Of a stretch of DNA of 64,000 nt, positions 4,219 through 63,704 are shown piece by piece; positions within the stretch are counted from its first letter, which is position 1, and each line of letters begins with the position of its first letter. The notes under the pieces are model-generated. The model did not search any database. It had not been told where the DNA came from and saw only the letters and a list, made by a program, of their open reading frames with translations. The position numbers were made by a program, and so were the translations under genes. The DNA comes from a bacterium (GTDB taxonomy: Bacteria > SAR324 > NAC60-12). Where the stretch lies: positions 73,421 to 137,420 of the forward strand of contig CBDDTI010000295.1 of the NCBI GenBank assembly GCA_965233585.1. The letters are read 5' to 3'.

Positions 4219-4410
4219 GACTTCCTCCTTACTTCTAATTTAATGAACAAAAAATAAATAAAAAATGAAATTACATTTTACATGGTTTTTAGGACGGTTC
4301 AAATAAAAAATAATTTTTTATTGTTTTTACAAAAAATTCTTCTGCAGGAAGAGACTTCAGACGATTCATCAAAGTCTTGTATGATGACAAGTCTCAAAGG
4401 CAGACTTGAA

Positions 4411-12300: not shown

Positions 12301-13540
12301 GAAAATCATTCACCGTAACTTGTTGGAAGTCACTAAGTTTTTAATCGGTTGCAAACTTCAACAGGACATAGTTTCAGAATATGAAGAAACTCTTGCATCA
12401 CAAGGAGACAAAATCACCCAAGAGCTTTTAGAAAGCATTGTCTTTGCTAAAGAGAATCAAGACAATTCATCAATGACAGCATGGGAGTCTGTTCAAATTA
12501 AAAATGAGGAGTCAAACGAAAAACTTCAGGTCATTTTGGAAAGTCTCACGTCACAACGAGCATTATTGAAAAATGTGTTTGAGGATAAGTGTGAAAAAGT
12601 GGCAAAAGGTGATGACTTAAAGCCCGGTGTCATTCGCACCATCAAGGTTTATGTGGCAACAAAACGCAAACTATCGGTTGGCGATAAGATGGCAGGAAGG
12701 CATGGAAACAAAGGGGTTGTTTCAAAAATCCAACTACTTGCCAATATGCCTTATATGGAAGACGGAACTCCTATTGATATTGTCTTAAATCCTTTGGGTG
12801 TGCCATCTCGTATGAATGTCGGGCAGGTGCTTGAAACTCATTTAGGCTGGGCTGCCAGAGAATTGGGACAGCAACTTCAAAAATTCGTTCAAGACAATCA
12901 CCCCGTCAACCAAATCAAAAAGTTTATGAAAGATATTTATAGCTCCCCTCAAATGGACGACTATTTAAAACAGATGTCAGACCAAGACTTTGTGGAGTTT
13001 GCCAAAAAATATTTCAAAGGTGTTCACATGGCAACTCCTGTTTTTGACGGAGCGCATGAAGAAGATATTCACAGGATGCTAGACCTTGCAGGTCTGCCCC
13101 GTTCAGGACAGACCAGACTTTATGATGGGCTGACAGGTGAACCTTTTGACCAGAAGGTTACGGTGGGCTGTGCCTACATTCTCAAACTCCATCATTTAGT
13201 TGATGAAAAAATTCATGCACGTTCTATCGGTCCCTATTCTCTTATCACCCAACAACCTCTTGGGGGTAAGGCTCAATTTGGGGGACAACGATTTGGTGAG
13301 ATGGAGGTTTGGGCATTGGAAGCGTACGGTGCGGCTCACACACTCAAAGAGCTTTTGACAGTCAAATCTGATGATGTGCAAGGACGTAATAAAACCTATG
13401 AGGCGATTGTCAAAGGTCGGCATCACGTAGAGACAGGACTACCTGAAGCCTTTAAGGTTTTGAGCAGTGAGCTTAAAAGTTTAAGTCTCAATGTGGAATT
13501 GATAGATGAAGAAGAAATGGAACCCAGTCTTGAAGACTAA
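9371..13540 (+). CDS. rpoB: DNA-directed RNA polymerase beta subunit
   Basis: 1389 aa with canonical RpoB blocks ([64 protein letters not shown]). Confidence 0.97.
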
Positions 13541-13583
13541 GGTTTTTCAAAAATAATAACACTCAAAAGCAAATAGGAAGCCT

Positions 13584-16500
13584 GTGGATACGAATCTTTT
13601 TGAACAAGAACATGCTACAAAAAGCAAGGCGTTACAGATCAAAGTTGCAACAACTGATGACGTCTTGTCTTGGTCTCATGGTGAAATCAAAACTTCTGAA
13701 ACAATCAATTATCGTACATTAAAGCCTGAACGAGATGGGTTGTTTTGTGCAAAAATCTTTGGTCCTACACAAGACTATGAATGTAATTGTGGCAAATACA
13801 AACGTATGAAACACAGAGGCATCACCTGTGAGAAGTGCGGAGTAGAAGTGATTTCATCAAAAGTCAGACGAGAACGTATGGGACACATCAAGTTGGCAAG
13901 CCCTGTGTCTCATATCTGGTTTTTAAAAGGAGTTCCAAGCCGTATTGGAACACTCTTGGATATGACTATGCGTGATTTAGAGGAGATTCTTTACTTCAAA
14001 GCCTACATTGTGGTCAACCCAGGAAGCTCTCCCTTCAAGGAACGAGAGATTGTTGATGAGTCAAAATACTATGAATTTTCAGAGCAATATCCTGATTTAG
14101 AATTGGGAATTGGTGCAGAGGCAATCCAAGTCTTACTGAAAAATTTAGACATTGATGAGTTACATGAATATCTCAGCATGGATTTGGCAGAAGCCTCATC
14201 AGAAGTTAGAAGAAAGCGAATTGTGAAACGTCTGAACATTGTCACTTATCTCAAAGAGTCCAATTCTGCCCCAGAGGCGATGATTTTAGAAGTCTTGCCT
14301 GTCTTACCCCCAGAGTTAAGACCACTTGTTCCACTAGAAGGTGGACGCTTTGCCACCAGTGACTTGAACGATTTATACAGACGGGTCATTCATCGCAACA
14401 ATCGCCTCAAGAGGCTCAAAGACCTCCGCGCTCCCATCATCATTGTTAAAAATGAGCAACGTATGTTACAAGAAGCTGTTGATGCTCTTTTAGACAATGG
14501 AAGACGAGGCTACCCCATCTTAGGCTCAAACAAACGTCCCCTTAAATCGTTGAGCGATATGCTCAAGGGTAAGCAAGGAAGGTTCAGGCAGAATCTGCTT
14601 GGAAAACGTGTGGACTATTCAGGCAGGACTGTTATCGTTGTTGGTCCTGATATGAAGTTGCATCAATGCGGACTACCTAAAAAAATGGCTCTTGAACTCT
14701 TCAAACCATTCATCTATCACAGACTCATTGACAATGACAAAGTCACCAGCATCAAGCAAGCCAAACAACTTTTGGAAAATAATGCCCCCGAAGTTTGGGA
14801 TATTTTAGAAAAAGTCATCATTGACCACCCTATTTTGTTGAACCGCGCACCAACACTACATAGGCTGGGAATCCAAGCATTTGAACCTGTTTTGATTGAA
14901 GGCAAGGCAATCCAACTGCATCCGCTAGTCTGCACTGCCTTTAATGCCGACTTTGACGGAGACCAAATGGCAGTGCATGTTCCACTTTCCATTGAAGCAC
15001 AACTTGAGGCAAAAATCCTCATCATGTCCACAAACAACCTCTTGTCCCCTGCCAATGGCAAGCCGCTTATGTCTCCAAGTCAAGATATTGTTTTGGGAAT
15101 GTACTGGATCACCACCGAGCAAGATGATTTAATCGGTCATGGAAAATGCTTTGCCAATTTTGACCAAGTGTCTGCTGCATACGATCATCAAAAAGTAGAG
15201 CTTCATACCAAAATCAAGGTGCGAATGGATGGTCAACTCACAGAAACCACTGTTGGTAGAATCTTACTTTTTCAAATCATTCCACCAGAAATTCCTTTCA
15301 GCTTAGTCAATCGTCAGCTGAACAAAAAACGTCTGGGCAATTTGATTGATATGGTTTATCGGCAAGTGGGAAGTGTCCGAACAGTCAAACTGCTTGACGA
15401 CATTAAAGCTCTTGGATACCGCTATGCAACGACTGCTGGTTTTTCTATCAGTATGGCAGATATGGTCTCGCCTCCCACAAAAGCGGAGCTTCTCAAGGCG
15501 GCTCAAGAAGAAGTAAACAAGGTCAATATTGAGTATCACAACGGTATCATCACAGATGGGGAACGTTACAATCAGGTCATTGACGTTTGGGCACGTGTTA
15601 CAGATAAAGTGGCAGAGGAAATGACCAAAGCCATTCAAAAACCAACTATGGAAGATGGGAAGAGAGTGTTCAATTCTATCTACATGATGGCAGATTCTGG
15701 TGCAAGAGGAAGTCAGCAGCAAATGAAACAGCTTGCAGGAATGCGTGGATTGATGGCAAAGCCATCAGGAGAGATCATTGAAACCCCCATCACTGCAAAC
15801 TTTCGTGAAGGGTTGAATGTCTTGCAATACTTCATCTCTACACATGGTGCAAGGAAGGGACTGGCTGACACAGCCCTCAAGACTGCAAATTCTGGTTACT
15901 TGACCAGAAGGCTGGTGGATATTGCCCAAGACTGTGTCATTCTTGAACATGATTGCGGCACACTTGATGGAATTGAAATGACTGCCTTGATTGAAGCAGG
16001 AGAAATTGTAGAAACTCTGGGTGAACGCATTTTGGGCAGAATCTCACAAGAAGACATTCCAGACCCTGATAACTCTGGTAGTTATATCATTCGCACAAGC
16101 GAAGAGATTACAGAAACGGTTGTTGAACAAATTGAAAAAGCTGGGGTTGAGAGAATCAATATCCGTTCTGCCTTAACTTGTATCAACGATCATGGTATTT
16201 GTCAGCTCTGCTACGGTCGTGATTTGTCACATGGGAGGATTATTAACTTAGGTGAAGCCGTTGGTGTGATTGCCGCACAAAGTATTGGTGAACCTGGCAC
16301 ACAATTAACCATGAGAACCTTCCACATTGGAGGTGCTGCAAGTCGTCTGGCAGAGCAAAACACTTGGGAGCCACGATTTAGCGGAATCTTAAAATTTGAA
16401 AACCTTAAAGAAGTTCGTAACAAAGACAACCAATACGTCGTCTCTGGAAGAAGAGGCTCTGCTTTGATTGTTGATGAACAGGGAAGGGAGAAAGACCGTC

Positions 16501-28130: not shown

Positions 28131-29381
28131 ATGAAACAGAATTTTAGCGCAAAATTATCCGCAATCCGCAATCCGCAATCCGCAATCCGCAATCCGCAAT
28201 CCGCAATCCGCAATCCGCAATCCGCAATCCGCAATCCGCAATCCGCAATCCGCAATCCGCAATCCGCAATCCGCAATCTATATAGGCTAACCCCGCTTTT
28301 TCAAAAGTCAAGACAAAAATGGAAATTCTTTGCGTTTTCGTCAAAAAATTCTCTCACCTACTCAAATCTCACTTCTTCAAACTCTTTCTCATTCTTCTCA
28401 CGATTTTTGCGATCTTTGCCTGTGGTAAAAATGGCTTTGATGATCGGAATTAGCTGGATGGCTGTTGGTTGTACGCTCCCTTTTGTTGCTCCTGGATTTG
28501 ATCCAACGCTCTACCCAAACCCACCAACCTACCCCAACAATTCATTATCAGAGCGAGCAGTCAAAGTACCACTCGGTTCAGAAGCATTTAGAGAAGGTTT
28601 ATTCGGTGCAAAATGGACACGAGGCGTCGAAATATTATGGTTTGATACAGATACTCTTGCTATTGCTTATCTAACTACTGAAGAATCTGAAGAAAAGGGA
28701 CAGAATGCCTTTTACTTTTCAGTGCCTAAAAACGCATTTATTGAAGGAGATTCAACTCTTTTTGATGCAATGGATAATTTTCGTAATCTCACTGAATTGA
28801 GTTACAAAAATGTGGATAGCACTGCCTCTCGTGCCCTCACTTTTTTGAGTGTTGCTGCAGGAAATGACAACTATCAGCCATGTATTGAATCTGAAAGTTC
28901 TCCAATTAGCACTTTGGATGGAAAATATTCAATAACCCTGTTGCTGTCAGACTATACTGGTGATGATTGCGATAGACCAACACAGGATGGTGATGGTATA
29001 TTTGATTACCAAGATATATACATGAGATACAGAATAAAAGGAGACAATTCAAAAAAAGAACTTATATTTACGAAGAAGTTTGAAAGTATTAGTCATTATA
29101 ATAGAGGACGTGGCGCCCGGACTATGTATCTTACAGAAGATAAAAAATATTTGGTTACGTCAAGGGGCATTGTTAGTCTTGATTCTCTCAAAATGATTGA
29201 TTATGCACCTACTTATCCTGAGGCAGACGGACTGCAGACTCGGACTCCACCCGCAATGTATGGAGCTTTTATTAGCCCAACTTTAGATAAGGTTGCCCTT
29301 TTGTATTACGTAGAAGATGCTAATTCAAAGACGGAATACTACCTAGAAATCACTGATTTTATTTTACCTGAAACGGAGTAG
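28131..29381 (+). CDS. Hypothetical lipoprotein-like protein with an N-terminal extension encoded through a heptanucleotide repeat
   Basis: ATG at 28131 with a strong SD (AAGGAG, 8-nt spacing). The frame runs through (CCGCAAT)17, read as (SAIRNPQ)n, into an internal signal/lipobox-like segment MALMIGISWMAVGC (from 28431) and a mature domain of about 300 aa with no family I recognise. Confidence 0.6.
   Translation: MKQNFSAKLSAIRNPQSAIRNPQSAIRNPQSAIRNPQSAIRNPQSAIRNLYRLTPLFQKSRQKWKFFAFSSKNSLTYSNLTSSNSFSFFSRFLRSLPVVKMALMIGISWMAVGCTLPFVAPGFDPTLYPNPPTYPNNSLSERAVKVPLGSEAFREGLFGAKWTRGVEILWFDTDTLAIAYLTTEESEEKGQNAFYFSVPKNAFIEGDSTLFDAMDNFRNLTELSYKNVDSTASRALTFLSVAAGNDNYQPCIESESSPISTLDGKYSITLLLSDYTGDDCDRPTQDGDGIFDYQDIYMRYRIKGDNSKKELIFTKKFESISHYNRGRGARTMYLTEDKKYLVTSRGIVSLDSLKMIDYAPTYPEADGLQTRTPPAMYGAFISPTLDKVALLYYVEDANSKTEYYLEITDFILPETE
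28157..28278 (+). repeat. Perfect heptanucleotide microsatellite (CCGCAAT)x17
   Basis: Hand count gives 28159-28277 = 119 nt = 17 exact units, plus partial units at both ends. The tract has no stop codon in any of the six frames. Confidence 0.95.
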
Positions 29382-30671: not shown

Positions 30672-31532
30672 TTAAAGGTTTTGGATTTGTTGTGGAGAGA
30701 GTCCAGTGATAGATTGAATCAAATCCATCTCCAATCCTTGAGCAAGCATCTTTTGAGCAATGTCAAGTTTCTCTTCTTGTCGTCCCTCTTCTCTTCCTTC
30801 TTCTCTTCCTTCTTGCTTACCTTTCTTCTCACCTAGCTCAATAGAGCTTTTTTGAATGGCAACAAACTCTTTTCTTTTGTGGTGGAGTTCTAACTCTTCA
30901 GATGTCATACCTGCTTCATTGACAATTTCTAAAGCCTTTTGGACAGAAGGATTGAAGGAATCAGGCACAAGATCAAACTCTTCAGCATGCTTGACAAAAT
31001 AAATCCACTGATCTTGGAGTTCCTGTAAGTCTTCAAAGTTTTTTTGAAACTTGGGAAGTTCAATAAAGACCAGTTCAATCTCCCCTGAATATTCAGTAAG
31101 CTGTTCTTTTTCCAATAACCTGAAACAGTTGATAAGTCTATCATTGTTGTCAAACATGACAAAATCCACCACACTGACAGCAATGACAGGCTTGAGCAAG
31201 TGATACTGACTTCCTGTAACCAACTGCATAGAATACTTTTTACAAGCATTGTAGAGGACTCGTTTCTCAAAGCCATCATGGTTGATGACTTGCATCTCAA
31301 TCATCACCTGCTCACCTGTGCTTAATGTGGCTTTGACATCTACATAGCTGTCTTTCATACCTTTGAGCAAAGGCGGATTGTAAGGGTCTTGAATCGTCAA
31401 ATCTTCAATCTTTTCATCATTTTGAAAAGTTAAAATAGAATTGAGGAAGCTGAGCAGAAGGTCTTGGTGCTTGGCATTACCAAAGACCATCTTGAAAGCA
31501 TAATCTGTTTTGACATCTAAAAAACGCATCAC
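30672..31532 (-). CDS. Rpn-family recombination-promoting nuclease / PD-(D/E)XK putative transposase, copy 1
   Basis: 286 aa. N-terminus MRFLDVKTDYAFKMVFGN...LLSFLN, and DSYVDVKA...IEMQV (PD-(D/E)XK core). The C-terminal helical tail (KLDIAQKMLAQGLEMDLIQSITGLS) is typical of YhgA/Rpn-like proteins. Confidence 0.8.
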   Translation of the reverse strand: MMRFLDVKTDYAFKMVFGNAKHQDLLLSFLNSILTFQNDEKIEDLTIQDPYNPPLLKGMKDSYVDVKATLSTGEQVMIEMQVINHDGFEKRVLYNACKKYSMQLVTGSQYHLLKPVIAVSVVDFVMFDNNDRLINCFRLLEKEQLTEYSGEIELVFIELPKFQKNFEDLQELQDQWIYFVKHAEEFDLVPDSFNPSVQKALEIVNEAGMTSEELELHHKRKEFVAIQKSSIELGEKKGKQEGREEGREEGRQEEKLDIAQKMLAQGLEMDLIQSITGLSPQQIQNL

Positions 31533-31560
31533 GTTTCTATGGAAGAGGCAAAAGAGTCCA

Positions 31561-32427
31561 TTATTTAATAAGGTTTTGGATTTGTTGTTGAGAGAGTCCA
31601 GTGATAGATTGAATCAAATCCATCTCCAATCCTTGAGCAAGCATCTTTTGAGCAATGTCAAGTTTCTCTTCTTGTCGCCCTTCTTCTCTTCCCTCTTCTC
31701 TTCCTTCTTGCTTTCCTTTCTTCTCACCTAACTCAATAGAGCTTTTTTGAATGGCAACAAACTCTTTTCTTTTGTGATGGAGTTCTAACTCTTCAGCTGT
31801 CATACCTGCTTCATTGACAATTTCTAAAGCCTTTTGGACAGAAGGATTGAAGGAATCAGGCACAAGATCAAACTCTTCAGCATGCTTGACAAAATAAATC
31901 CACTGATCTTGGAGTTCCTGTAAGTCTTCAAAGTTTTTTTGAAACTTGGGAAGTTCAATAAAGACCAATTCAATCTCCCCTGAATATTCAGTAAGCTGTT
32001 CTTTTTCCAATAACCTGAAACAGTTGATGAGTTTGTCAGTGTTATCAAACATGACAAAATCCACCACACTGACAGCAATGACAGGCTTGAGCAAGTGATA
32101 CTGACTTCCTGTAACCAACTGCATAGAATACTTTTTACAAGCATTGTAGAGGACTCGTTTCTCAAAGCCATCATGGTTGATGACTTGCATCTCAATCATC
32201 ACCTGCTCACCTGTGCTTAATGTGGCTTTGACATCTACATAGCTGTCTTTCATACCTTTGAGCAAAGGCGGATTGTAAGGGTCTTGAATCGTCAAATCTT
32301 CAATCTTTTCATCATTTTGAAAAGTTAAAATAGAATTGAGGAAGCTGAGCAGAAGGTCTTGGTGCTTGGCATTACCAAAGACCATCTTGAAAGCATAATC
32401 TGTTTTGACATCTAAAAAACGCATCAC
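31561..32427 (-). CDS. Rpn-family recombination-promoting nuclease / PD-(D/E)XK putative transposase, copy 2
   Basis: 288 aa. It differs from copy 1 at only a handful of residues (NNDR/NTDK, S/A, C-terminal tail). The tandem unit of about 890 bp includes about 35 bp of 5' leader. Confidence 0.8.
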   Translation of the reverse strand: MMRFLDVKTDYAFKMVFGNAKHQDLLLSFLNSILTFQNDEKIEDLTIQDPYNPPLLKGMKDSYVDVKATLSTGEQVMIEMQVINHDGFEKRVLYNACKKYSMQLVTGSQYHLLKPVIAVSVVDFVMFDNTDKLINCFRLLEKEQLTEYSGEIELVFIELPKFQKNFEDLQELQDQWIYFVKHAEEFDLVPDSFNPSVQKALEIVNEAGMTAEELELHHKRKEFVAIQKSSIELGEKKGKQEGREEGREEGRQEEKLDIAQKMLAQGLEMDLIQSITGLSQQQIQNLIK

Positions 32428-48795: not shown

Positions 48796-50241
48796 TTATC
48801 CAAGTAAGGACAACACCATCTGGTCTTTGGTGTTTGCCTGTGCCAGCATAGCGGTTGCCGATTGCATCATAATCTGATTCTTGGTGAAGGTTGTCATCTC
48901 TTCTGCCATGTCTGTATCACGAATCACAGACTCTGCAGAGATTAGGTTTTCACTAGCCACACGCAGATTGTTGAGATTACTTTGCAAGGTGTTTTTTTGG
49001 AATGCCCCAAGCTTTCCACGTTCTATGGTCGTTTCTTCTATCGCTTGGTCTATGATACTTAATGAATCCTGTGCAGAACGAAAGGACGTCACATCTACTT
49101 CTTCCAAAGATTTGATGTCACTGACGTTCTCCAGTCCTTTCCCCAATGCAGAAGGCGCCATGTTTCTTAACGACACAGCGATCGTTTGACCTTCATTTGC
49201 ACCAATTTGAAATTGCAATGAATTTTGAAACACTGACACAGTCCCTGCAATTTGGGCTTGTCCTTCTGAAATGGCTTCTCCGTTATAACGAACGGCAAGC
49301 CCTGCAATGTTGGGTGCATTGTCTTTGCCTGTTAAAATCTGCCCACGACCGACGGCATCTTCCCCGTTGATTGTGCCTTTGACGTCTGCTCCTCTCTCTG
49401 CTTCCTGTGTGACATTACCTATGTCAGACAACACACCCCCCGTCTCTGATGACACCGAAAAAGAGTTCTCACTCCCGTATTCTTGATGCGTCAATGTGAC
49501 ACTTCCATTGTCATTCTTAGAGACCTCTATCTTCAGTCCTGCGGCTGCAATTTTAGATTTCAGTTCATTGATGTTGCTGTCCAGATTCTCTCCTGCAATG
49601 GTTGTGAAAGAGACAGTTTTACCCCCCTCACTGACAGTGAGAGTTTCCCCATCATCTATCAGCTGTTGAGTCAAAGCCACACTACCTGTGACAGAAGTCT
49701 TAGATGCCACTTGCGAAATCTCAACATCATAACCCTCTATGGGTGATGTGTTGGTGTTGGGTCCTGCAGAGACAAACTGCAGACCTTCTCCATTTGCCAC
49801 TCCGTTTGCACCACGACTGCCATTGAGCAGTTGCTTTTTGCCAAATTGGGTGTTTTGGGCAATTCTTTCAATGGTAGCAAGGGCATTGTCTATCTCTGCT
49901 TGGTCTGCCTCAAGCATCTTTTCATCGTTCACACCTGTATTGCTGGCATGAATAGCAAGCTGACGAACATCTACAAGCAGCTTATTCACTTCTTGCAATG
50001 CTCCTTCTGCGGTTTGCACCATAGAAATCCCACTTTCAGAGTTGTCTATCGCTTGTTCAAGTCCTGCAATCTGCGCTCGCATTTGCTCTGAAATCACAAG
50101 CGATGCAGGACCATCTGCGGCACGATTGATCTTCTCCCCAGATGAAAGTTTTTCTAGGGTTTTGGCTGAATTAAACGCAGCACTCCCTAATTGACGCTGC
50201 GTGTTGATGGCACTAATATTGTGTTTGATTCTAAACATCAT
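48796..50241 (-). CDS. fliC: Flagellin, C-type paralogue 1 (481 aa)
   Basis: LEKLSSGEKINRAADGPASL...; the N- and C-terminal thirds are near-identical to 51061..52506 and 53320..54762. Confidence 0.95.
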   Translation of the reverse strand: MMFRIKHNISAINTQRQLGSAAFNSAKTLEKLSSGEKINRAADGPASLVISEQMRAQIAGLEQAIDNSESGISMVQTAEGALQEVNKLLVDVRQLAIHASNTGVNDEKMLEADQAEIDNALATIERIAQNTQFGKKQLLNGSRGANGVANGEGLQFVSAGPNTNTSPIEGYDVEISQVASKTSVTGSVALTQQLIDDGETLTVSEGGKTVSFTTIAGENLDSNINELKSKIAAAGLKIEVSKNDNGSVTLTHQEYGSENSFSVSSETGGVLSDIGNVTQEAERGADVKGTINGEDAVGRGQILTGKDNAPNIAGLAVRYNGEAISEGQAQIAGTVSVFQNSLQFQIGANEGQTIAVSLRNMAPSALGKGLENVSDIKSLEEVDVTSFRSAQDSLSIIDQAIEETTIERGKLGAFQKNTLQSNLNNLRVASENLISAESVIRDTDMAEEMTTFTKNQIMMQSATAMLAQANTKDQMVLSLLG

Positions 50242-50262
50242 AACCTCCTTGGTTTGATTGAA

Positions 50263-50278
50263 ATGCTATCCATAGCAT
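50263..50278 (-). promoter_or_regulatory. 5'-leader hairpin presenting GGA in the loop (AUGCUAUGGAUAGCAU), candidate CsrA-type binding site
   Basis: A perfect inverted repeat 12 nt upstream of the AAGGAGG SD. Homologous hairpins with compensatory stem changes occur at 52527-52542 and 54787-54802. Confidence 0.45.
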
Positions 50279-50304
50279 AAAAAAACCCCTGATACATTCA
50301 AAGG
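50279..50304 (-). terminator. Hairpin plus U-run at the end of repeat array 1 (terminator/attenuator-like)
   Basis: RNA sense: CCUUUGA-AUGUA-UCAGGGG followed by UUUUUUU. The 7-bp stem has two G-U pairs and lies immediately 5' of the leader hairpin. Confidence 0.3.
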
Positions 50305-50330
50305 CAACTTAAAAATTGTAAATTGTGAAT

Positions 50331-51011
50331 GGTTAAATCTATTTATCCGTTGTCATTAGACACTCCTCCCTGAATCTCTCATCAAAAAACTAGAGACTCT
50401 TAAAAAATGCTCCTTCCTCTTCTCCAATCCTTTCCAGAGACAAAGAAGAAACTCAAAAAAAACAAAAATCCAAAAAACTCCTCACGTTCTGATGACTTTT
50501 GTCAAATCCGTTGATCCATTGTCAAAGACACGTCTCCCTGAATCTCTCATCAAAAAACTAGAGACTCCTAGAAAATGCTCCTTCCTCTTCTGCAATCCTT
50601 TCCAGATTGAAAGAAGAAGAAGCTCAACAAAACAAAAATCCAAAAAACTCCTCACGTTCTGACGACTTTTGTCAAATCCATTTATCCGTTGTCATTAGAC
50701 ACTCCTCCCTGAATCTCTCATCAAAAAACTAGAGACTCCTAAAAAATGCTCATTCCTCTTCTCCAATCCTTTCCAGAGACAAAGAAGAAACTCAAAAAAA
50801 ACAAAAATCCCAAAAAACTCCTCACGTTCTGACGACTTTTTGTCAAATCCGTTGATCCATTGTCAAAGACACGTCTCCCTGAATCTCTTAATCAAAACAT
50901 CACGGACTCCTAAAAACTGCGGTTCGCTCTCCAATCCTTGCCAGAAACAAAGAAGAAGAAACTCAACAAAACAAAAATTCCAAAAAACTCCTCACGTTCT
51001 GATGAATTTTT
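50331..51011. repeat. Tandem array 1: four units of about 170 bp between flagellin paralogues
   Basis: Unit starts (gtcaaatcc-type motif) at about 50332, 50501, 50671 and 50842, with a degenerate fifth start at about 51013. Two unit subtypes alternate (ccgttgatccattgtcaaagacacg vs ccatttatccgttgtcattagacac). Confidence 0.9.
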
Positions 51012-51060
51012 TGTCAGCATCAAGCAAAGACTTCCTGCCTGATGCCAATTCAAAAATCCA

Positions 51061-52506
51061 TCAGCTTAATAAGGAAAGCACCATCTGGTCTTTGGCGTTT
51101 GCCTGTGCCAGCATGGCGGTTGCTGATTGCATCATAATCTGATTCTTGGTGAAGGCTGTCATCTCTTCTGCCATGTCTGTATCGCGGATCACAGACTCTG
51201 CTGAAACCAAGTTTTCATTTGCCACACGCAAGTTGTTGAGATTACTTTGCAAGGTATTCTTTTGGAATGCCCCGAGCTTTCCACGTTCTATGGTCGTTTC
51301 TTCTATCGCTTGGTCTATGATATTCAAGGAATCCTGTGCAGAACGAAAGGACGTCACATCTACTTCTTCCAAAGATTTGATGTCACTGACGTTCTCCAGT
51401 CCTTTCCCCAATGCAGAAGGCGCCATGTTTCTTAAAGACACCGCAATCGTTTGACCTTCATTTGCTCCGATTTGAAATTGCAATGAGTTCTGAAACACTG
51501 ACACAGTCCCTGCAACTTGAGATTGCCCCTCTGGAATAGCTGCTCCATTGTAACGAACAGCAAGCCCTGCAATGTTGGGTGCATTGTCTTTGCCTGTTAA
51601 AACTTGCCCACGACCGACGGCATCTTCCCCGTTGATTGTTCCTTTGACGTCTGCTCCTCTCTCGGCTTCCTGCGTGACATTACCGACGGTGGACAAAACA
51701 CCATTTGTCTCTGATGCCACTGAAAAAGAATGCTCGCTTCCGTATTCTTGATGCGTCAATGTGACACTTCCATTGTCATTCTTAGAGACGTCTATCTTCA
51801 GTCCTGCAGCTGCAATTTTAGACTTCAGTTCATTGATGTTACTGTCCAGATTCTCTCCTGCAATGGTTGTGAAGGAGACAGTTTTACCACCTTCACTGAC
51901 AGTGAGAGTTTCCCCATCATCTATCAGCTGTTGAGTCAAAGCCACACTACCTGTGATGGACGTTTTAGTGGCAACTTGAGAGATGTCAACATCATAGCCT
52001 TCCACAGGCGATGTATTGGTGTTGGGTCCTGCAGAGACAAACTGCAGACCTTCTCCATTGGCAACTCCGTTTGCACCACGACTGCCGTTGAGCAGTAGCT
52101 TCGTTCCAAACTGAGTGTTTTGGGCAATTCTTTCAATGGTAGCAAGGGCATTGTCTATCTCTGCTTGGTCTGCCTCCAGCATTTTTTCATCGTTCACACC
52201 TGTATTGCTGGCATGAATGGCAAGCTGACGAACATCTACAAGCAACTTATTCACTTCTTGCAATGCTCCTTCTGCCGTTTGCACCATAGAAATCCCACTT
52301 TCCGAGTTGTCTATCGCTTGCTCAAGTCCCGCAATCTGCGCCCGCATTTGCTCTGAAATCACAAGCGATGCAGGACCATCTGCGGCACGATTGATCTTCT
52401 CCCCAGATGAAAGTTTTTCTAGGGTTTTGGCTGAATTAAATGCAGCGATCCCTAATTGACGCTGCGTGTTGATGGCACTAATATTGTGTTTGATTCTAAA
52501 CATCAT
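51061..52506 (-). CDS. fliC: Flagellin, C-type paralogue 2 (481 aa)
   Basis: Same conserved termini as paralogue 1. The differences cluster in the central variable domain. Confidence 0.95.
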   Translation of the reverse strand: MMFRIKHNISAINTQRQLGIAAFNSAKTLEKLSSGEKINRAADGPASLVISEQMRAQIAGLEQAIDNSESGISMVQTAEGALQEVNKLLVDVRQLAIHASNTGVNDEKMLEADQAEIDNALATIERIAQNTQFGTKLLLNGSRGANGVANGEGLQFVSAGPNTNTSPVEGYDVDISQVATKTSITGSVALTQQLIDDGETLTVSEGGKTVSFTTIAGENLDSNINELKSKIAAAGLKIDVSKNDNGSVTLTHQEYGSEHSFSVASETNGVLSTVGNVTQEAERGADVKGTINGEDAVGRGQVLTGKDNAPNIAGLAVRYNGAAIPEGQSQVAGTVSVFQNSLQFQIGANEGQTIAVSLRNMAPSALGKGLENVSDIKSLEEVDVTSFRSAQDSLNIIDQAIEETTIERGKLGAFQKNTLQSNLNNLRVANENLVSAESVIRDTDMAEEMTAFTKNQIMMQSATAMLAQANAKDQMVLSLLS

Positions 52507-52526
52507 AACCTCCTTGGTTGATTAAA

Positions 52527-52542
52527 ATGCGTTCCATCGCAT
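52527..52542 (-). promoter_or_regulatory. 5'-leader hairpin with GGA loop (AUGCGAUGGAACGCAU)
   Basis: Stem AUGCG/CGCAU, loop AUGGAA, 12 nt upstream of the AAGGAGG SD. Confidence 0.45.
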
Positions 52543-52567
52543 AAAAAGCCCCCGATACATTCAAAGG
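52543..52567 (-). terminator. Hairpin plus U-run at the end of repeat array 2 (terminator/attenuator-like)
   Basis: RNA sense: CCUUUGA-AUGUA-UCGGGGG then CUUUUU. This is the homologue of 50279-50304, with one substitution that keeps pairing as G-U. Confidence 0.3.
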
Positions 52568-52588
52568 CACTTAAAAAAATTGTGAATT

Positions 52589-53262
52589 GTCAAATCCATT
52601 TATCCGTTGTCAAAAGACACTTCTCCCTGAATCTCTCATCAAAACATCAGAGACTCCTAAAAACTACAGTTCGCTCTCCAATCCTTTCCAGAGACAAAGA
52701 AAAAGAAGCTCAAAAACAAAAATCCTAAAAAGCTCTTTGCGTTCTTATGACTTTTGTCAAATCCATTTATCCGTTGTCAAAAGACACTTCTCCCTGAATC
52801 TCTCATCAAAACATCAGAGACTCTTAAAGCTGGAGACTCCTAAAAAATGCTCCTCCCCTTTCCAGTCCTATACAGATTGAAATAAGAAGAAGAAACTCAA
52901 AAAAACCTTGCGTTCTTATGACTTTTGTCAAATCCATTTGACCGTTGTCAAAAGACACTTCTCCCTGAATCTCTCATCAAAACATCAGAGACTCTTGAGA
53001 CTACTCTTAAAAAATGCTCCTCCTCCTCTCCAATCCTTTCCAGAGACAAAGAAAAAGAAGCTCAAAAAAACCTTGCGTTCTTACGACTTTTGTCAAATCT
53101 ATTTATCCGTTGTCAAAAGACACTTCTCCCTGAATCTCTCATCAAAACATCACAGACTCTTAAAGCTGGAGACTCCTAAAAAATGCTCCTCCCTCCTCTC
53201 CAATCCTTTCCAGAGACAAAGAAAAAGAAGCTCAAAAACAAAAATCCCGAAAAGTTGATTGC
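52589..53262. repeat. Tandem array 2: four units of about 165-171 bp between flagellin paralogues
   Basis: Unit starts at 52589, 52756, 52927 and 53092. The units are homologous to array 1 but carry unit-specific indels. Confidence 0.9.
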
Positions 53263-53319
53263 GTTTGATTTTTTCAGGATCAAACGACAACCTTCCGTCT
53301 GATGCAAATTTAAAATCTA

Positions 53320-54762
53320 TTAACTCAATAAGGAAAGCACCATCTGGTCTTTGGCGTTTGCCTGTGCCAGCATCGCAGTTGCAGATTGCATCATAATCTG
53401 ATTTTTGGTGAAGGCTGTCATCTCTTCTGCCATGTCTGTATCACGAATCACAGACTCTGCTGAAGTTAAGTTTTCACTAGAAACCCTAAGGTTGTTCAGG
53501 TTGCTTTGTAATGTGTTTTTCTGGAATGCCCCAAGTTTCCCTCGTTCCATAGTCGTTTCTTCTATCGCTTGGTCTATGATATTCAAGGAATCCTGTGCAG
53601 ACCGAAAGGACGTCACATCTACCTCTTCTAGGGATTTGATGTCACTGACGTTCTCTATTCCTTTTCCCAGTGCAGAAGGCGCCATGTTTCTTAAAGACAC
53701 GGCGATTGTTTGACCTTCATTTGCACCAATTTGGAATTGCAATGAGTTCTGAAACACTGACACAGTCCCTGCATTTTTGGTCTGTCCTTCTGGAATGGCA
53801 GCTCCATTGTAACGAACAGCAAGCCCTGCGATGTTGGGTGCATTGTCTTTGCCTGTTAAAATCTGCCCACGACCGACGGCATCTTCTCCGTTGATTGTGC
53901 CTTTGACGTCTGCACCCCGTTCTGCTTCTTCTGTCACATTACCTACGGTGGACAACACACCTGCTGTCTCTGATGCCACTGAAAAAGAATGCTCGCTTCC
54001 GTATTCTTGATGCGTCAGTGTAATCGCACCAAGGTCTGTTCTGGAGACATCTATCTTCAGACCTGCGGCGGCAATTTTAGACTTCAGCTCATTGATGTTG
54101 CTGTCCAGATTCTCTCCTTTGAGAGTGGTGAACGAAACGGTTTTGCCCCCTTCGCTGACAGTGAGAGTTTCCCCATCATCTATCAGTTGTTGAGTCAAAG
54201 CCACACTGCCTGTGGTGGTCGTTTTAGTGGAAACTTGAGAGATGTCCACATCATAGCCTTCCACAGGCGATGAGTTCGTTGTTGGTCCTGCAGAGACAAA
54301 TTGTAAGCCCTCTCCATTCGCCACGCCGTTTGCACCACGACTGCCATTGAGCAGTAGCTTTGTTCCAAACTGGGTGTTTTGGGCAATTCTTTCAATGGTG
54401 GCAAGTGCGTTGTCTATCTCTGCTTGGTCTGCCTCAAGCATCTTTTCATCGTTCACACCTGCGTTGCTGGCATGAATCGCTAACTGGCGAACATCTACAA
54501 GTAATCTGTTGACTTCTTGCAAGGCGCCTTCTGCTGTTTGCACCATGGAAATCCCACTTTCAGAGTTGTCTATCGCTTGCTCAAGTCCTGCAATCTGCGC
54601 TCGCATTTGCTCTGAAATCACAAGCGATGCAGGACCATCTGCGGCACGATTGATCTTCTCCCCAGATGAAAGTTTTTCTAGGGTTTTAGCTGAGTCAAAT
54701 GCTGCATTCCCTAATTGACGTTGTGTATTGATTGCACTGATGTTGTGTTTAATTCTAAACAT
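53320..54762 (-). CDS. fliC: Flagellin, C-type paralogue 3 (480 aa)
   Basis: Same family, with conserved termini. Confidence 0.95.
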   Translation of the reverse strand: MFRIKHNISAINTQRQLGNAAFDSAKTLEKLSSGEKINRAADGPASLVISEQMRAQIAGLEQAIDNSESGISMVQTAEGALQEVNRLLVDVRQLAIHASNAGVNDEKMLEADQAEIDNALATIERIAQNTQFGTKLLLNGSRGANGVANGEGLQFVSAGPTTNSSPVEGYDVDISQVSTKTTTTGSVALTQQLIDDGETLTVSEGGKTVSFTTLKGENLDSNINELKSKIAAAGLKIDVSRTDLGAITLTHQEYGSEHSFSVASETAGVLSTVGNVTEEAERGADVKGTINGEDAVGRGQILTGKDNAPNIAGLAVRYNGAAIPEGQTKNAGTVSVFQNSLQFQIGANEGQTIAVSLRNMAPSALGKGIENVSDIKSLEEVDVTSFRSAQDSLNIIDQAIEETTMERGKLGAFQKNTLQSNLNNLRVSSENLTSAESVIRDTDMAEEMTAFTKNQIMMQSATAMLAQANAKDQMVLSLLS

Positions 54763-54802: not shown

Positions 54803-54846
54803 GACAAAGTTCTTTTGAATCATTCAAAAAAACGTTTAAAAATTCA

Positions 54847-56007
54847 TTAAATTTGAGCTGGGGTGTCAGATGCGTTGCTTAAAATTGAAAGCATGGCTTG
54901 TTCATTCTGCACCCGATTTTCTTCCCCGATGCTGGTTTTTTGGGGCTTTGACCCTGCCAGCAACATAAATCCTGTCATTTGCAATGTTTTGATGGATTCT
55001 TCCATCTGTTGAATGTCATTGTTCATCTGTCTCAACATGTGTTGACACAGTTTTTGTGCTTGAATTTCTGGCAAGCTGGGCAGTTGTAGCATGTTGTACC
55101 ACTGCCCATCGCTAAGCACTCCTCCTAAATCGCAAGGATTCAGCGATGGAATTTGCATAGACAAAGGCTCGTCTTGATGTTCTAAATTGCCAATCAGCCG
55201 CTTTGTTCCATCTTGAATCGTTAACAATTCCTCGCCTGAAAATCCCCCATACCATAAGATATGCGTTTCATGGTCTGTCATCTGGTTGCCTTCCCATAAA
55301 GCGTGCATGCCATTGATTTTGGCACTTCCTAATTTGCCAACTTTTGACGTTTGCATGATGCCCGGTGCCACAGAAATCAGGGCTGTCTTTTCACTGTAAC
55401 CAAAGAAAAGGACTTGCGATTTGGACAAATGCTGAATTTTTAAAAATCCTTCTTGGTTGATAGTCAAGTCAAGTGACAATCCCTTCTGAAAAATCATGCG
55501 TTGAGCGCCTAGTAAAAAGCTCTCAATGGTTTCATCTGGTGCAAGACAATACACTGCCGTTTTGCCCCCTTCATAAAATCCAACATACGTCTCATTGCGG
55601 AGTAGCTTTTGAGTCAAAGGGACTGAGCCGTACAAAACACTTGGAATTGGTGCTTTGACAGTTTGCACACGAATTGTCTGACCATGCCTCATGTGTAGCG
55701 GTATTTTGACCGCTCTGCAAACTTGTCCTTTTGCCAAAAGCTGAAAGCGACCATCTAGCAACATGTCTCCTTCAAAGTGAGTGGTTTTGAGCCTCCTAAG
55801 CATGTTTTGATGCAGTGTTTCAAAGCTGGCACTTTCAAAGTCTTCAGACAGTGCTTTCAATTCTTTTTGAGTTTTTTTGAATTGAAAGAGTGCATTTTGT
55901 AGGCTGGAGACCGATTTTTCTATCTGTTCCAATAGTTCATTAGAACCTAAAAAATCTAACGACTCCCTCCACAAGACTTGCTTGGGTTTTAATAATTTTC
56001 TTTCCAC
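54847..56007 (-). CDS. Flagellin-like protein lacking the conserved N- and C-terminal D0 segments
   Basis: 386 aa with a GTG start and an AAGAGG SD. The central part parallels the flagellin variable domain: EGGKT...GLSLDL...LKIQH...ING..A..G versus EGGKT...GLKIEV...VTLTH...INGEDAVGRG. A D1-like stretch is present (TTHFEGDMLLDG vs NTQFGTKLLLNG). The LSSG.KIN..ADGPA N-terminus and the ..LAQAN C-terminus are absent. Confidence 0.6.
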   Translation of the reverse strand: MERKLLKPKQVLWRESLDFLGSNELLEQIEKSVSSLQNALFQFKKTQKELKALSEDFESASFETLHQNMLRRLKTTHFEGDMLLDGRFQLLAKGQVCRAVKIPLHMRHGQTIRVQTVKAPIPSVLYGSVPLTQKLLRNETYVGFYEGGKTAVYCLAPDETIESFLLGAQRMIFQKGLSLDLTINQEGFLKIQHLSKSQVLFFGYSEKTALISVAPGIMQTSKVGKLGSAKINGMHALWEGNQMTDHETHILWYGGFSGEELLTIQDGTKRLIGNLEHQDEPLSMQIPSLNPCDLGGVLSDGQWYNMLQLPSLPEIQAQKLCQHMLRQMNNDIQQMEESIKTLQMTGFMLLAGSKPQKTSIGEENRVQNEQAMLSILSNASDTPAQI

Positions 56008-56161: not shown

Positions 56162-56400
56162 AGCGAACGCAAAAAGCCCTGAATACTCTTAAAATTGAGT
56201 ACTCACGGCATTCTTTCATCTCCTTTCTTCTTTCTAATTTTTAATTTTTAGCAAACGCAAAAAGCCCTGAATACTCTTAAAATTGAGTACTCACGGCATT
56301 CTTTAACCTTCTTTCTAATTTTTAATTTTTAGCAAACGCAAAAAGCCCTGAATACTCTTAAAATTGAGTACTCACGGCATTCTTTCATCTTCTTTTCTCA
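56162..56400 (-). terminator. Three tandem copies (81-88 bp) of an intrinsic-terminator module downstream of fliS
   Basis: Each unit reads, in RNA sense, GCCGUGAGUACUC-AAUUUUAA-GAGUAUUCAGGGC followed by UUUUUG. That is a 13-bp stem with one mismatch and one G-U. Unit starts on the plus strand are at 56162, 56250 and 56331. Confidence 0.65.
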
Positions 56401-62769: not shown

Positions 62770-63544
62770 GGGCAGTGTTCACTTGATATTGGCATTGCAT
62801 GTGAGAGTAAATTTGAGGAATGGAAATGAGAAGTTGTCATCATTGTGGGAGTCAGACTTATATCAAGAATGGAAGTTACAAAGGGGTTCAGAGGTATCGT
62901 TGCAAGTCATGTCAGAGAGCATTCACCTCAAATGGGTTGAGAATCCCACTAGAGACCAAGCGTCAAGCCTTAGAGATGTATGTCAATAGTGTAGGCATCA
63001 GAAAGATCGCTCGTTTTTTGCAGGTGTCTCCAACTTCTGTTCTCAACTGGATCAAAAAAGCCAGAGTGTCTCAACTTCCAAAAGACGCACCAAGTTTCCA
63101 TGAACAAGTAGATAGTATAGAGATGGATGAGATCTACACTTTTGTTCAAAAAAAAGTCAAAGAGTAGCCGTTTGGACAGCCTATTCTCGTCAAGAACAAT
63201 GTGTGATTGCCTTTGTGATAGGCAAAGGATTAGCAGCAGCAAAGCAGCTGTATGCACTAGTCAAAGCACAACGAGCTAGAATTGAAACGATTTATACAGA
63301 TGCCAACTCATGCTATCAAGTGGCATTTGCACAACTCCAAATTCCAGAGAACCACGAAATAGGCAAGAGAAATACTCATCTCATTGAATCTTCTAATTCT
63401 TCCATCAGAGATAACCTAGCTCGCTTGATGAGAAAATCTAAACGACATTCCAAAACTTTTGACATGCTGGAACACTCTCTACAACTCTTCTTTGACTATA
63501 AAAGGTTTGAAAAATATCATGACAATACCAAGTGAACACTGCCC
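62770..63544 (+). mobile_element. Second, divergent IS1-family insertion sequence (775 bp)
   Basis: Terminal inverted repeats GGGCAGTGTTCACTTG(A/G)TATTG(G/T)CAT lie at 62770-62796 and, reverse-complemented, at 63518-63544; the first 16 nt are perfect. I found no flanking direct repeat (ctctagta vs gttttcac). Confidence 0.85.
62820..63535 (+). CDS. IS1-family transposase (InsA-like plus InsB-like, putative -1 frameshift at the A8 run 63148-63155)
   Basis: ORF 62820..63167 (CHHCGS...YRCKSCQRAF zinc finger, then HTH). The -1 frame continues KKSQRVAVWTAYSRQEQCVIAFVIGKG... into ORF 63203..63535. Confidence 0.8.
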
Positions 63545-63704
63545 GTTTTCACAGGGGTGACGTTCTTTCGCAGGAATGACGGCAGTATAAAGACTGCGAA
63601 GCAAGTCTGGAATGACATTTTTCAAATTGAGCTATGAAAAAGGCAAAGCCTGACGTGGTAGTTTAGGAGAGAATTTTGCGAATTAGGGAATCTTTTAAAA
63701 GGTC

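Follow-up and report, generated by a model that had tools for sequence, protein, structure and literature searches.

A GGA-rich tandem repeat array between flagellin paralogues of a SAR324 bacterium: structure, divergence, and possible origin

The filament locus and its repeated units

The DNA analysed here, referred to below as the window, is a stretch of 64,000 nt (positions 73,421 to 137,420 of contig CBDDTI010000295.1, GenBank assembly GCA_965233585.1) from an uncultured bacterium of the SAR324 lineage. Its minus strand carries a filament locus with, in this order, genes for a 595-aa flagellin, a 1093-aa FliD, two FliS proteins, a 386-aa open reading frame (ORF) without a Pfam match, three closely related flagellins, and two more flagellins. 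The best named matches of the flagellins are SAR324 cluster proteins. The three paralogues of the trio are located, in order, at 53320-54762, 51061-52506, and 48796-50241, and share 91.5–95% amino-acid and 87–92% nucleotide identity in pairwise comparisons. The subject of this analysis is array 2, a tandem repeat in the 813-nt spacer between the first and second genes of the trio (52507-53319). A sister array of the same family, array 1, lies in the spacer between the second and third genes (Table 1).

Read in the flagellin sense, the spacer is composed of 48 nt of post-stop sequence, four head-to-tail units of 165–181 nt (periods of 165, 171, and 167), and 81 nt of promoter and leader sequence. 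Unit boundaries were taken from a MAFFT alignment with four units per spacer. The unit starts given in an initial annotation of this DNA (52589, 52756, 52927, and 53092), together with its periods, were right to within one base, and the insertion it gave as an example corresponds to the 16-nt indel of the alignment. The indels among the units have lengths of 1, 2, 3, 4, 16, and 18 nt. Unit 4 ends in TTGACA-N14-TTGACA and there adjoins the flagellin promoter region. Tandem Repeats Finder (TRF) reported array 2 at 52737-53238 (period 165, 3.0 copies, 89% matches, score 821) and array 1 at 50345-51010 (period 170, 3.9 copies). A profile hidden Markov model of the unit recovered exactly eight copies in the window, four per array (E values 2e-39 to 1.5e-50), and neither profile nor pattern scans of the 64 kb gave any other credible copy outside the two spacers, which, for this stretch, speaks against a dispersed repeat of the REP (repetitive extragenic palindromic), MITE (miniature inverted-repeat transposable element), or MIRU-like (mycobacterial interspersed repetitive unit) type.

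Table 1. Array 2, its flanking structures, and related features; positions refer to the window
Feature	Positions	Strand	Details
Three flagellin paralogues, 480-481 aa	48796..54762	(-)	Pfam Flagellin_N and Flagellin_C; frame both arrays
Spacer start, directly after stop codon of upstream flagellin	53272..53319	(-)	8-9-bp hairpin 53303-53279, loop GAAGGUUGU
Unit 1	53091..53271	(-)	5' end diverged; 16-nt insertion, common to unit 3; nhmmer match 53266-53091, E = 1e-47
Unit 2, 165 nt	52926..53090	(-)	18-nt deletion, common to unit 3; E = 9.6e-44
Unit 3, 171 nt	52755..52925	(-)	Placed by alignment; E = 2e-39
Unit 4, 167 nt	52588..52754	(-)	CGAACYGYAG variant, common to array-1 unit 1; E = 3.2e-50
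8-bp hairpin/palindrome	52548..52568	(-)	GCCUUUGA...UCGGGGGC, then UUUUUAU; terminator scan; stem changes compensatory in relatives
Leader of downstream flagellin (51061-52506)	52507..52542	(-)	AUGGA-loop hairpin 52542-52527; Shine-Dalgarno AAGGAGG 52515-52509
Sister array 1, four units, same family	50242..51060	(-)	819-nt spacer between flagellins 51061-52506 and 48796-50241

Spacer sequence was found in four metagenome runs only, all of them low-depth assemblies of unrecorded library type, and in no RNA sequencing run. Exact short-read unitigs from these runs, which are possibly the assembly's own source, span every unit junction, and an artefact of assembly is thereby ruled out for the array. 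Unitigs of this kind cannot count units, and the stretch 52642-52673, which is specific to unit 4, was covered by the unitigs of none of the runs. An exact 152-nt unitig in run X4 (sample S2; depth 2.45) fuses 52967-53025 of unit 2 to 52674-52766, which extends from unit 4 into unit 3, and hints that a second sample has a recombinant unit or an extra one.

Coding capacity, GGA content, and terminal structures

Array 2 is non-coding. Two antisense-strand ORFs cross it (52587..52880, 97 aa; 52908..53258, 116 aa), and neither has a Pfam match. The flagellin-sense strand contains 14–20 stop codons per frame and, in array 1, every unit has stops in all three antisense-strand phases; coding capacity is therefore excluded. 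The ORFs had been described as changing frame from unit to unit, which is the case at unit 4 only, since the second ORF keeps one phase through units 3, 2, and 1, where the periods of 165 and 171 are multiples of three. The more general claim that no reading frame is conserved was borne out, there being no frame common to both arrays, no Pfam match, and indels (1, 2, 4, and 16 nt) that are not multiples of three.

The flagellin-sense strand of 52507-53319 contains 37 GGA triplets (4.6 per 100 nt) and the other strand three. An earlier hand count of about 35 TCC and about 3 GGA on the plus strand is consistent with the 35 TCC present in 52588-53319 and the 37 TCC and 3 GGA in 52507-53319. Half of the GGAs lie in a single purine run, GGAAAGGAUUGGAGAGGAGGGAGGAG, which faces a CU run, CUUCUUUUUCUUUGUCUCU, a few bases upstream. 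A single unit has 8 GGA as compared to 5.4 ± 1.4 in dinucleotide-preserving shuffles, and the excess is modest once dinucleotide composition is allowed for. A general strand bias was rejected as the source of the asymmetry within the window, because the other intergenic regions do not have it. The initial annotation regarded the GGA motifs as kept, and the number per unit is indeed kept (8–11), but individual GGA sites are conserved no better than other triplets. Across the eight units, GGA sites are present in 5.25 units on average and other triplets in 6.12, while 2 of 12 GGA sites are invariant versus 39 of 143 other triplets.

The display of GGA motifs in predicted RNA folds was compared with that in CsrB of E. 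coli (22 GGA in 369 nt), a positive control assessed by the same fold measure. Predicted hairpin loops contain 7 of 35 GGAs (20%) in array 2 and 12% in array 1, values close to those of shuffled sequences (16 ± 7% and 9%, respectively), whereas CsrB has 45% of its GGAs in loops versus 14 ± 8% in shuffles. Likewise, predicted unpaired GGAs amount to 29% in array 2 (shuffles, 36%), 22% in array 1 (29%), and 73% in CsrB (54%). In the predicted folds of the arrays, the GA run pairs with the CU run and buries the GGAs. When the eight units are folded to a consensus, covariation contributes -0.09 kcal/mol, with a compensatory change in one of 29 pairs. At gathering thresholds, Rfam gave no match in the window or in the filament loci of five relatives, designated L002, L003, L004, L009, and L010 (flagellin identity to the window of 89%, 81%, 71%, 69%, and 66%, respectively); at E <= 10, both arrays gave chance matches only (Lysine riboswitch at 17 bits, and models of small nucleolar and long non-coding RNAs). 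Of the features that typify the CsrB/Rsm sponge family, array 2 has the GGA density and lacks loop display in the predicted fold, the match to a family model, and conservation with covariation.

The structures at the two ends of the spacer had also been described as kept. The post-stop hairpin is present in both arrays. The array-1 counterpart folds at -18.4 kcal/mol (z = -4.75) and includes one compensatory stem change, while in array 2 the hairpin has -8 kcal/mol (z = -1.0) and, in a longer context, is replaced by a stronger nested fold (-17.6 kcal/mol) that is followed by a U-rich run (about 53297-53235). The nested fold and U-rich run, as modelled, could terminate transcripts after the stop codon and before the array. 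In a simple scan for terminators, no site is flagged from the upstream stop codon to the array, and the hairpin with a U-run at 52568-52548 is the first to be flagged. This terminal hairpin is kept as claimed, and its array-1 counterpart (50305-50285) is likewise terminator-like. It could be a terminator for read-through transcripts of the array, or else an element overlapping the -10-like TTGAAT.

The 52568-52548 and AUGGA-loop hairpins fold together at -14.1 kcal/mol (z = -2.6), and both recur upstream of the flagellins of relatives with compensatory stem changes. The leader features are kept in L002, L003, L004, and L009, and the homologous stretch of L002 is 82% identical. A GGA-loop hairpin together with a GGA-containing Shine-Dalgarno sequence is the CsrA-site feature of the flaA/hag type; it is found in the leader (52542-52509), which is beside the array and not inside it. 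Inspection by eye of the sequence upstream of the flagellins revealed neither a sigma-28 nor a sigma-54 consensus box, and a sigma-70-like match within array 2 (TTGACA-16-GACAAT, 52613-52586) occurs in the last unit only. Relatives without the array still keep the leader and promoter region. The conserved end structures lie outside the repeated units and are part of the flagellin leader/promoter region and of the upstream gene's 3' end.

Immediately upstream of its AUGGA hairpin, every flagellin leader has another hairpin or palindrome (window 52548-52568, 50285-50305, and 54812-54830; L002 4247-4267). Its stem covaries, its centre keeps (G/A)AAUG, and it overlaps a -10-like TTGAAT or TCAAAT.

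Divergence of the units and the spacers of related bacteria

The 4-fold degenerate sites of the flanking flagellin paralogues were used as a neutral yardstick. Divergence at these sites is 19.5% between the second and third genes and about 30% (up to 0.305) between the first gene and the other two, and synonymous codon changes among the paralogues exceed non-synonymous changes by roughly 3–4 to 1. Between the arrays, the units diverge by 17% overall (identity 0.829), by 21% in the 5' part (0.788), and by 12% in the 3' 85 nt (0.88). Because the divergence of units between arrays is similar to that of the 4-fold sites, most of the unit drifts at about the neutral rate. The 3' 85 nt are the best kept part, with an identity of 0.955 within array 2 and almost no indels.

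Units are more similar within arrays (0.905 in array 2 and 0.855 in array 1) than between them (0.829). When the two spacers are aligned in register, identity is 79.0%, versus 76.5–77.8% when they are shifted by whole units. In a maximum-likelihood tree of the units, no positional orthologues are found and the two arrays separate weakly (support 73/86), while units 2 and 4 of array 1 form a well-supported recent duplicate pair with 97% identity. The within-array similarity, the lack of positional orthologues, and this duplicate pair agree with the earlier description of array 2 as independently diverged. The sharing of indels is mosaic: the 16-nt insertion is full in units 1 and 3 of array 2 and has a 12-nt form in unit 2, the 18-nt deletion is found in units 2 and 3 of array 2, and the CGAACYGYAG variant in unit 4 of array 2 and unit 1 of array 1. 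Taken together, the identity pattern, the tree, the indel mosaic, and the joined unitig point to concerted evolution by unequal crossing-over and gene conversion.

In all six SAR324 filament loci examined, the flagellin paralogues are separated by gene-free spacers of 0.7–2.6 kb, and across these spacers only the leader and promoter stretch of about 80–100 nt is conserved. Profile and homology searches found the unit of the window in none of the flagellin spacers of the five relatives. In L002, the closest relative found, homology to the window ends about 99 nt upstream of the start codon and comprises only leader and promoter; homology of the unit to the spacers of relatives was rejected apart from this stretch. 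Scans with a 20-mer taken from the core of the unit, where conservation is highest, gave a single isolated match in 185,579 representative genomes (one per species) and two matches in JGI metagenomes, both inside protein-coding sequence. Missing from the five relatives and from the public collections scanned, the unit is thus young and confined to one lineage.

To judge from these loci, long, repeat-laden, and fast-changing flagellin spacers are a clade-wide state. L004 has several arrays of 26–36-bp units, L010 has dispersed elements common to its spacers in both orientations, and short inverted-repeat elements were seen by eye in L002. GGA density in the relatives' spacers is 1.6–4.9 per 100 nt, mostly close to dinucleotide-shuffle expectation in L002, L003, and L004, and the GGA:TCC ratio of 1.3–2.6 is no higher than in their coding sequence. 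A decayed flagellin pseudogene was rejected as the origin of the long spacers, since tblastn found nothing in 15 spacers.

Other repeats were observed in the same spacers. In L003, a 2.1-kb spacer (11459-13557) is made of a 377-bp unit, with 2.7 copies by TRF and further diverged copies visible in the sequence. A second L003 spacer (15016-15831) shares pieces of this unit, and each flagellin promoter there has beside it a copy of the short motif GGAAGTCATGGA(C/G)GATTTTC. In L009, five perfect copies of a 41-bp unit, TAGGAAGGATTTTATCCAAGAACAGGGAGAATCCCTGCTTG, with 3 GGA each, form a tandem repeat at 4191-4395, which ends 135 nt upstream of a flagellin start codon; the same spacer has an assembly gap flanked by a 58-bp repeat.

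Several further features were noted around the filament locus. Within the same 8 kb, the gap that separates fliS from the 386-aa ORF contains a third tandem array (56162-56395; 81-bp unit x 2.7), each copy of which carries a 9-bp hairpin, TGAGTACTC...GAGTATTCA, followed by GGGCTTTTTG. The 386-aa ORF itself (54847-56007) has a counterpart in the same place, between fliS and the first flagellin, in all filament loci examined (L003 8526-9836, L004 3466-4752, and L010 5571-6884). These ORFs of 386–437 aa belong to no Pfam family, and their correspondence is positional. Traces of mobile elements (window 30672-32427 and 62820-63620; L002 581-1327) include two adjacent PD-(D/E)XK-family transposase paralogues containing CTT-type repeats, an IS1 transposase fragment, short inverted-repeat elements ending in GGAATGAC, and an IS605 OrfB gene adjoining the first L002 flagellin. 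Elsewhere in the window, a perfect heptanucleotide repeat (AATCCGC, 17.4 copies, 28157-28278) begins 26 nt past the ATG of an ORF of 416 aa (28131-29381), which lacks a Pfam match and has a second ATG at about 28320. The repeat has the look of a phase-variable (contingency) switch of the slipped-strand type, within a gene or shortly ahead of it, which would be unusual for a free-living marine lineage.

Origin and possible roles of array 2

Our preferred explanation, to which we assign a probability of about one half, is that array 2 is a young, lineage-specific, minisatellite-like amplification of promoter-proximal spacer that is kept similar by recombination and has no dedicated function. Replication slippage or unequal recombination would have multiplied, head to tail, some 168 bp of spacer that lay just before a flagellin promoter, and the array would already have been present when the flagellin-plus-spacer cassette was duplicated. 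Afterwards, unequal crossing-over and gene conversion would have remodelled each array on its own. The GGA richness would be a by-product of amplifying one purine-rich, C-poor unit in which a GA tract faces a CU tract. The array is perhaps carried passively on flagellin transcripts, in which case any regulatory effect would be incidental.

Minisatellite or variable-number tandem repeat (VNTR) loci in intergenic regions occur in bacterial genomes, e.g., the MIRU-type loci of mycobacteria. Array 2 resembles them in being composed of head-to-tail, non-coding units between co-oriented genes, repeated beyond chance, with both substitutions and indels, near-neutral and concerted evolution, restriction to one lineage, and a hint of unit-level polymorphism between samples. 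It differs from them in its long unit (about 168 bp), its strong strand asymmetry, its presence in only two paralogous spacers rather than in many dispersed loci, and the fact that the locus carries other, independent repeats in relatives. The initial annotation had taken the kept motifs and end structures as support for a role as functional RNA or protein-binding DNA. The results do not sustain that step, given the near-neutral divergence, the lack of preferential GGA conservation and of loop display, the compensatory changes in one of 29 pairs, and the absence of the unit from the closest relative found. Nor do the sequences give any sign of selection maintaining CsrA sites in the array.

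Several observations weigh against this explanation. GGA density in the two arrays (4.6 and 5.3 per 100 nt, on the flagellin-sense strand only) is above that of all 21 other intergenic regions of 60 nt or more in the 64-kb window (0–3.0) and close to that of CsrB (6.0), and the GC skew of the arrays is +0.36 and +0.40 versus -0.27 to +0.25 in those regions. The 37 GGAs of array 2 compare with 24.2 ± 3.1 in dinucleotide-preserving shuffles, an excess of about 4 sd among units that are not independent. Every long spacer adjoins a leader that resembles CsrA sites, GGA-containing tandem repeats of unrelated sequence recur upstream of flagellins in relatives (L009 and L004), which could be convergent selection, and secondary-structure prediction is unreliable for a repeat RNA of 800 nt. 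Finally, the slower evolution of the 3' 85 nt may reflect mild constraint rather than a recent conversion tract. As the main rival explanation, it is conceivable, if rather unlikely, that the array is a CsrA decoy in an untranslated region (UTR), transcribed either as a long 3' UTR with the upstream flagellin gene or, with the downstream gene, as an extension of the 5' region. On this reading, CsrA would be sequestered by some 35 GGA and Shine-Dalgarno-like motifs, such that flagellin transcription itself would relieve the repression of flagellin leaders. The adjacent leaders, with their clade-conserved AUGGA-loop hairpin and GGA-containing Shine-Dalgarno sequence, are consistent with such a role, as is the lack of a simple-scan terminator between the upstream stop codon and the array, whereas L002 has a terminator-like hairpin 50–70 nt past its flagellin stop codon. 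A flagellin mRNA that acts as a CsrA sponge also has a precedent (PMC4894983). On the other hand, the GGAs of the arrays are predicted to lie mostly in stems with the CU tract and reach loops at shuffle level by a measure that CsrB passes, GGA sites are not preferentially conserved on a unit that diverges at a near-neutral rate, and the closest relative found keeps the leader without the unit. The GGA content of the relatives' spacers, as described above, exceeds neither dinucleotide expectation nor the bias of coding sequence, and the nested hairpin and U-rich run could stop transcripts short of the array. No CsrA-like ORF is present in the 64-kb window, neither csrA nor fliW adjoins the filament locus on the walked contig of a further relative, L011, and none of the papers in the library searched mentions both SAR324 and CsrA. 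The decoy reading is kept alive by the compositional outliers, the neighbouring CsrA-type leaders, and the recurrent unrelated GGA-bearing repeats in relatives.

A DNA-level element, in which the 3' 85 bp of the unit serve as an upstream site for a flagellar transcription factor or nucleoid protein, appears improbable. This block holds GATGAGAGATTCAGGGAG and the direct repeat TTGACAA-N13-TTGACAA, and the promoter-proximal copy would be the working one, while the others would add sites or ride along. Its conservation and near freedom from indels are what such a site would predict, and a 26-bp TTGACA...TTGACA segment is found in seven of the eight units with no more than 3 mismatches (0 expected by chance). 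Directly next to the core promoter region, the last copy runs on into TTGACAA-TTCACAA heptamers, and the final 25 nt or so of the unit show a weak alignment to L002 sequence upstream of the promoter. However, no known binding motif was identified in the block, no such element precedes the leader of the first flagellin of the trio (53320-54762), which is the same as the others, and the closest relative found lacks the 85-bp block. A recent gene-conversion tract could explain its identity equally well, and a DNA site would not be expected to show the strong strand asymmetry that the unit has. We regard as very improbable indeed a set of tandem small-RNA genes, one per unit in the manner of rsmX or csrB, or a CU-rich plus-strand antisense RNA directed against Shine-Dalgarno sequences and transcribed from the promoter-like site at 52456-52485. 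Multi-copy Csr small RNAs are known (PMC11882849), sigma-70-like matches on the plus strand (TTGACG-17-TAATAT, 52456-52484 and 50191-50219) point into the arrays, and the plus strand has CCUCC-type runs complementary to the flagellin Shine-Dalgarno sequence. Yet a simple scan revealed no promoter and terminator pair per unit, and promoter-like matches in the region number 11 versus 11.7 ± 3.8 in shuffles. The plus-strand promoter match is located in conserved coding sequence, such that the gene explains its conservation, and the antisense fold is unremarkable (z = -1.5).

With the CsrB/CsrC and RsmX/Y/Z RNAs of Gammaproteobacteria, the array shares a large number of GGAs on one strand at near-CsrB density, a modular repeated build, and a motility context (PMC11882849). 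In contrast to these RNAs, its GGAs are not in predicted hairpin loops, it does not appear to form a separate gene between a promoter and a terminator of its own, its module is 168 nt long rather than a hairpin of about 20 nt, and it has neither an Rfam match nor conservation in relatives. The flagellin leaders next to the array invite a different comparison. The leader of Bacillus subtilis hag has two CsrA sites, BS1 and BS2, and is governed by a FliW-CsrA partner switch. In Campylobacter jejuni, the flaA mRNA is both a target and a titrator of CsrA (PMC4894983), and the leaders beside the array resemble those of flaA and hag in their GGA-loop hairpin and GGA-containing Shine-Dalgarno sequence. 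If co-transcribed, the array would add GGA sites to flagellin mRNA, and a decoy would amount to a scaled-up version of flaA titration, whereas titration by flaA and hag rests on two 5'-leader sites and the binding of CsrA by the array is hypothetical. We know of no repeat array described in a flagellin UTR. As a long shot, SAR324 bacteria may repeatedly evolve lineage-specific tandem GGA-bearing RNA modules in flagellin gaps as transcript-encoded decoys for CsrA or ribosomes, of which the 168 nt x 4 arrays found twice here, the 41 nt x 5 array in L009, and the 30–36 nt arrays in L004 would be examples.

If that speculation were true, unit number would set the strength of a feedback from flagellin transcription onto flagellin translation, and there would be an RNA sponge inside a FliW-type lineage, from which, to our knowledge, none is known. 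With a decoy of this kind, flagellin transcripts would for the first time be seen to carry an RNA-based CsrA antagonist in the form of a repeat array, outside the Gammaproteobacteria and in a widespread uncultured marine group. Under the minisatellite-like origin that we prefer, the array would be a matter of ordinary genome dynamics and would illustrate how the spacers of multi-copy flagellins grow and stay similar by recombination. It is also a warning that a high GGA count by itself does not make a CsrA sponge. In the comparative pattern, each SAR324 filament locus examined has its own spacer repeats, and only the leader and promoter are conserved.

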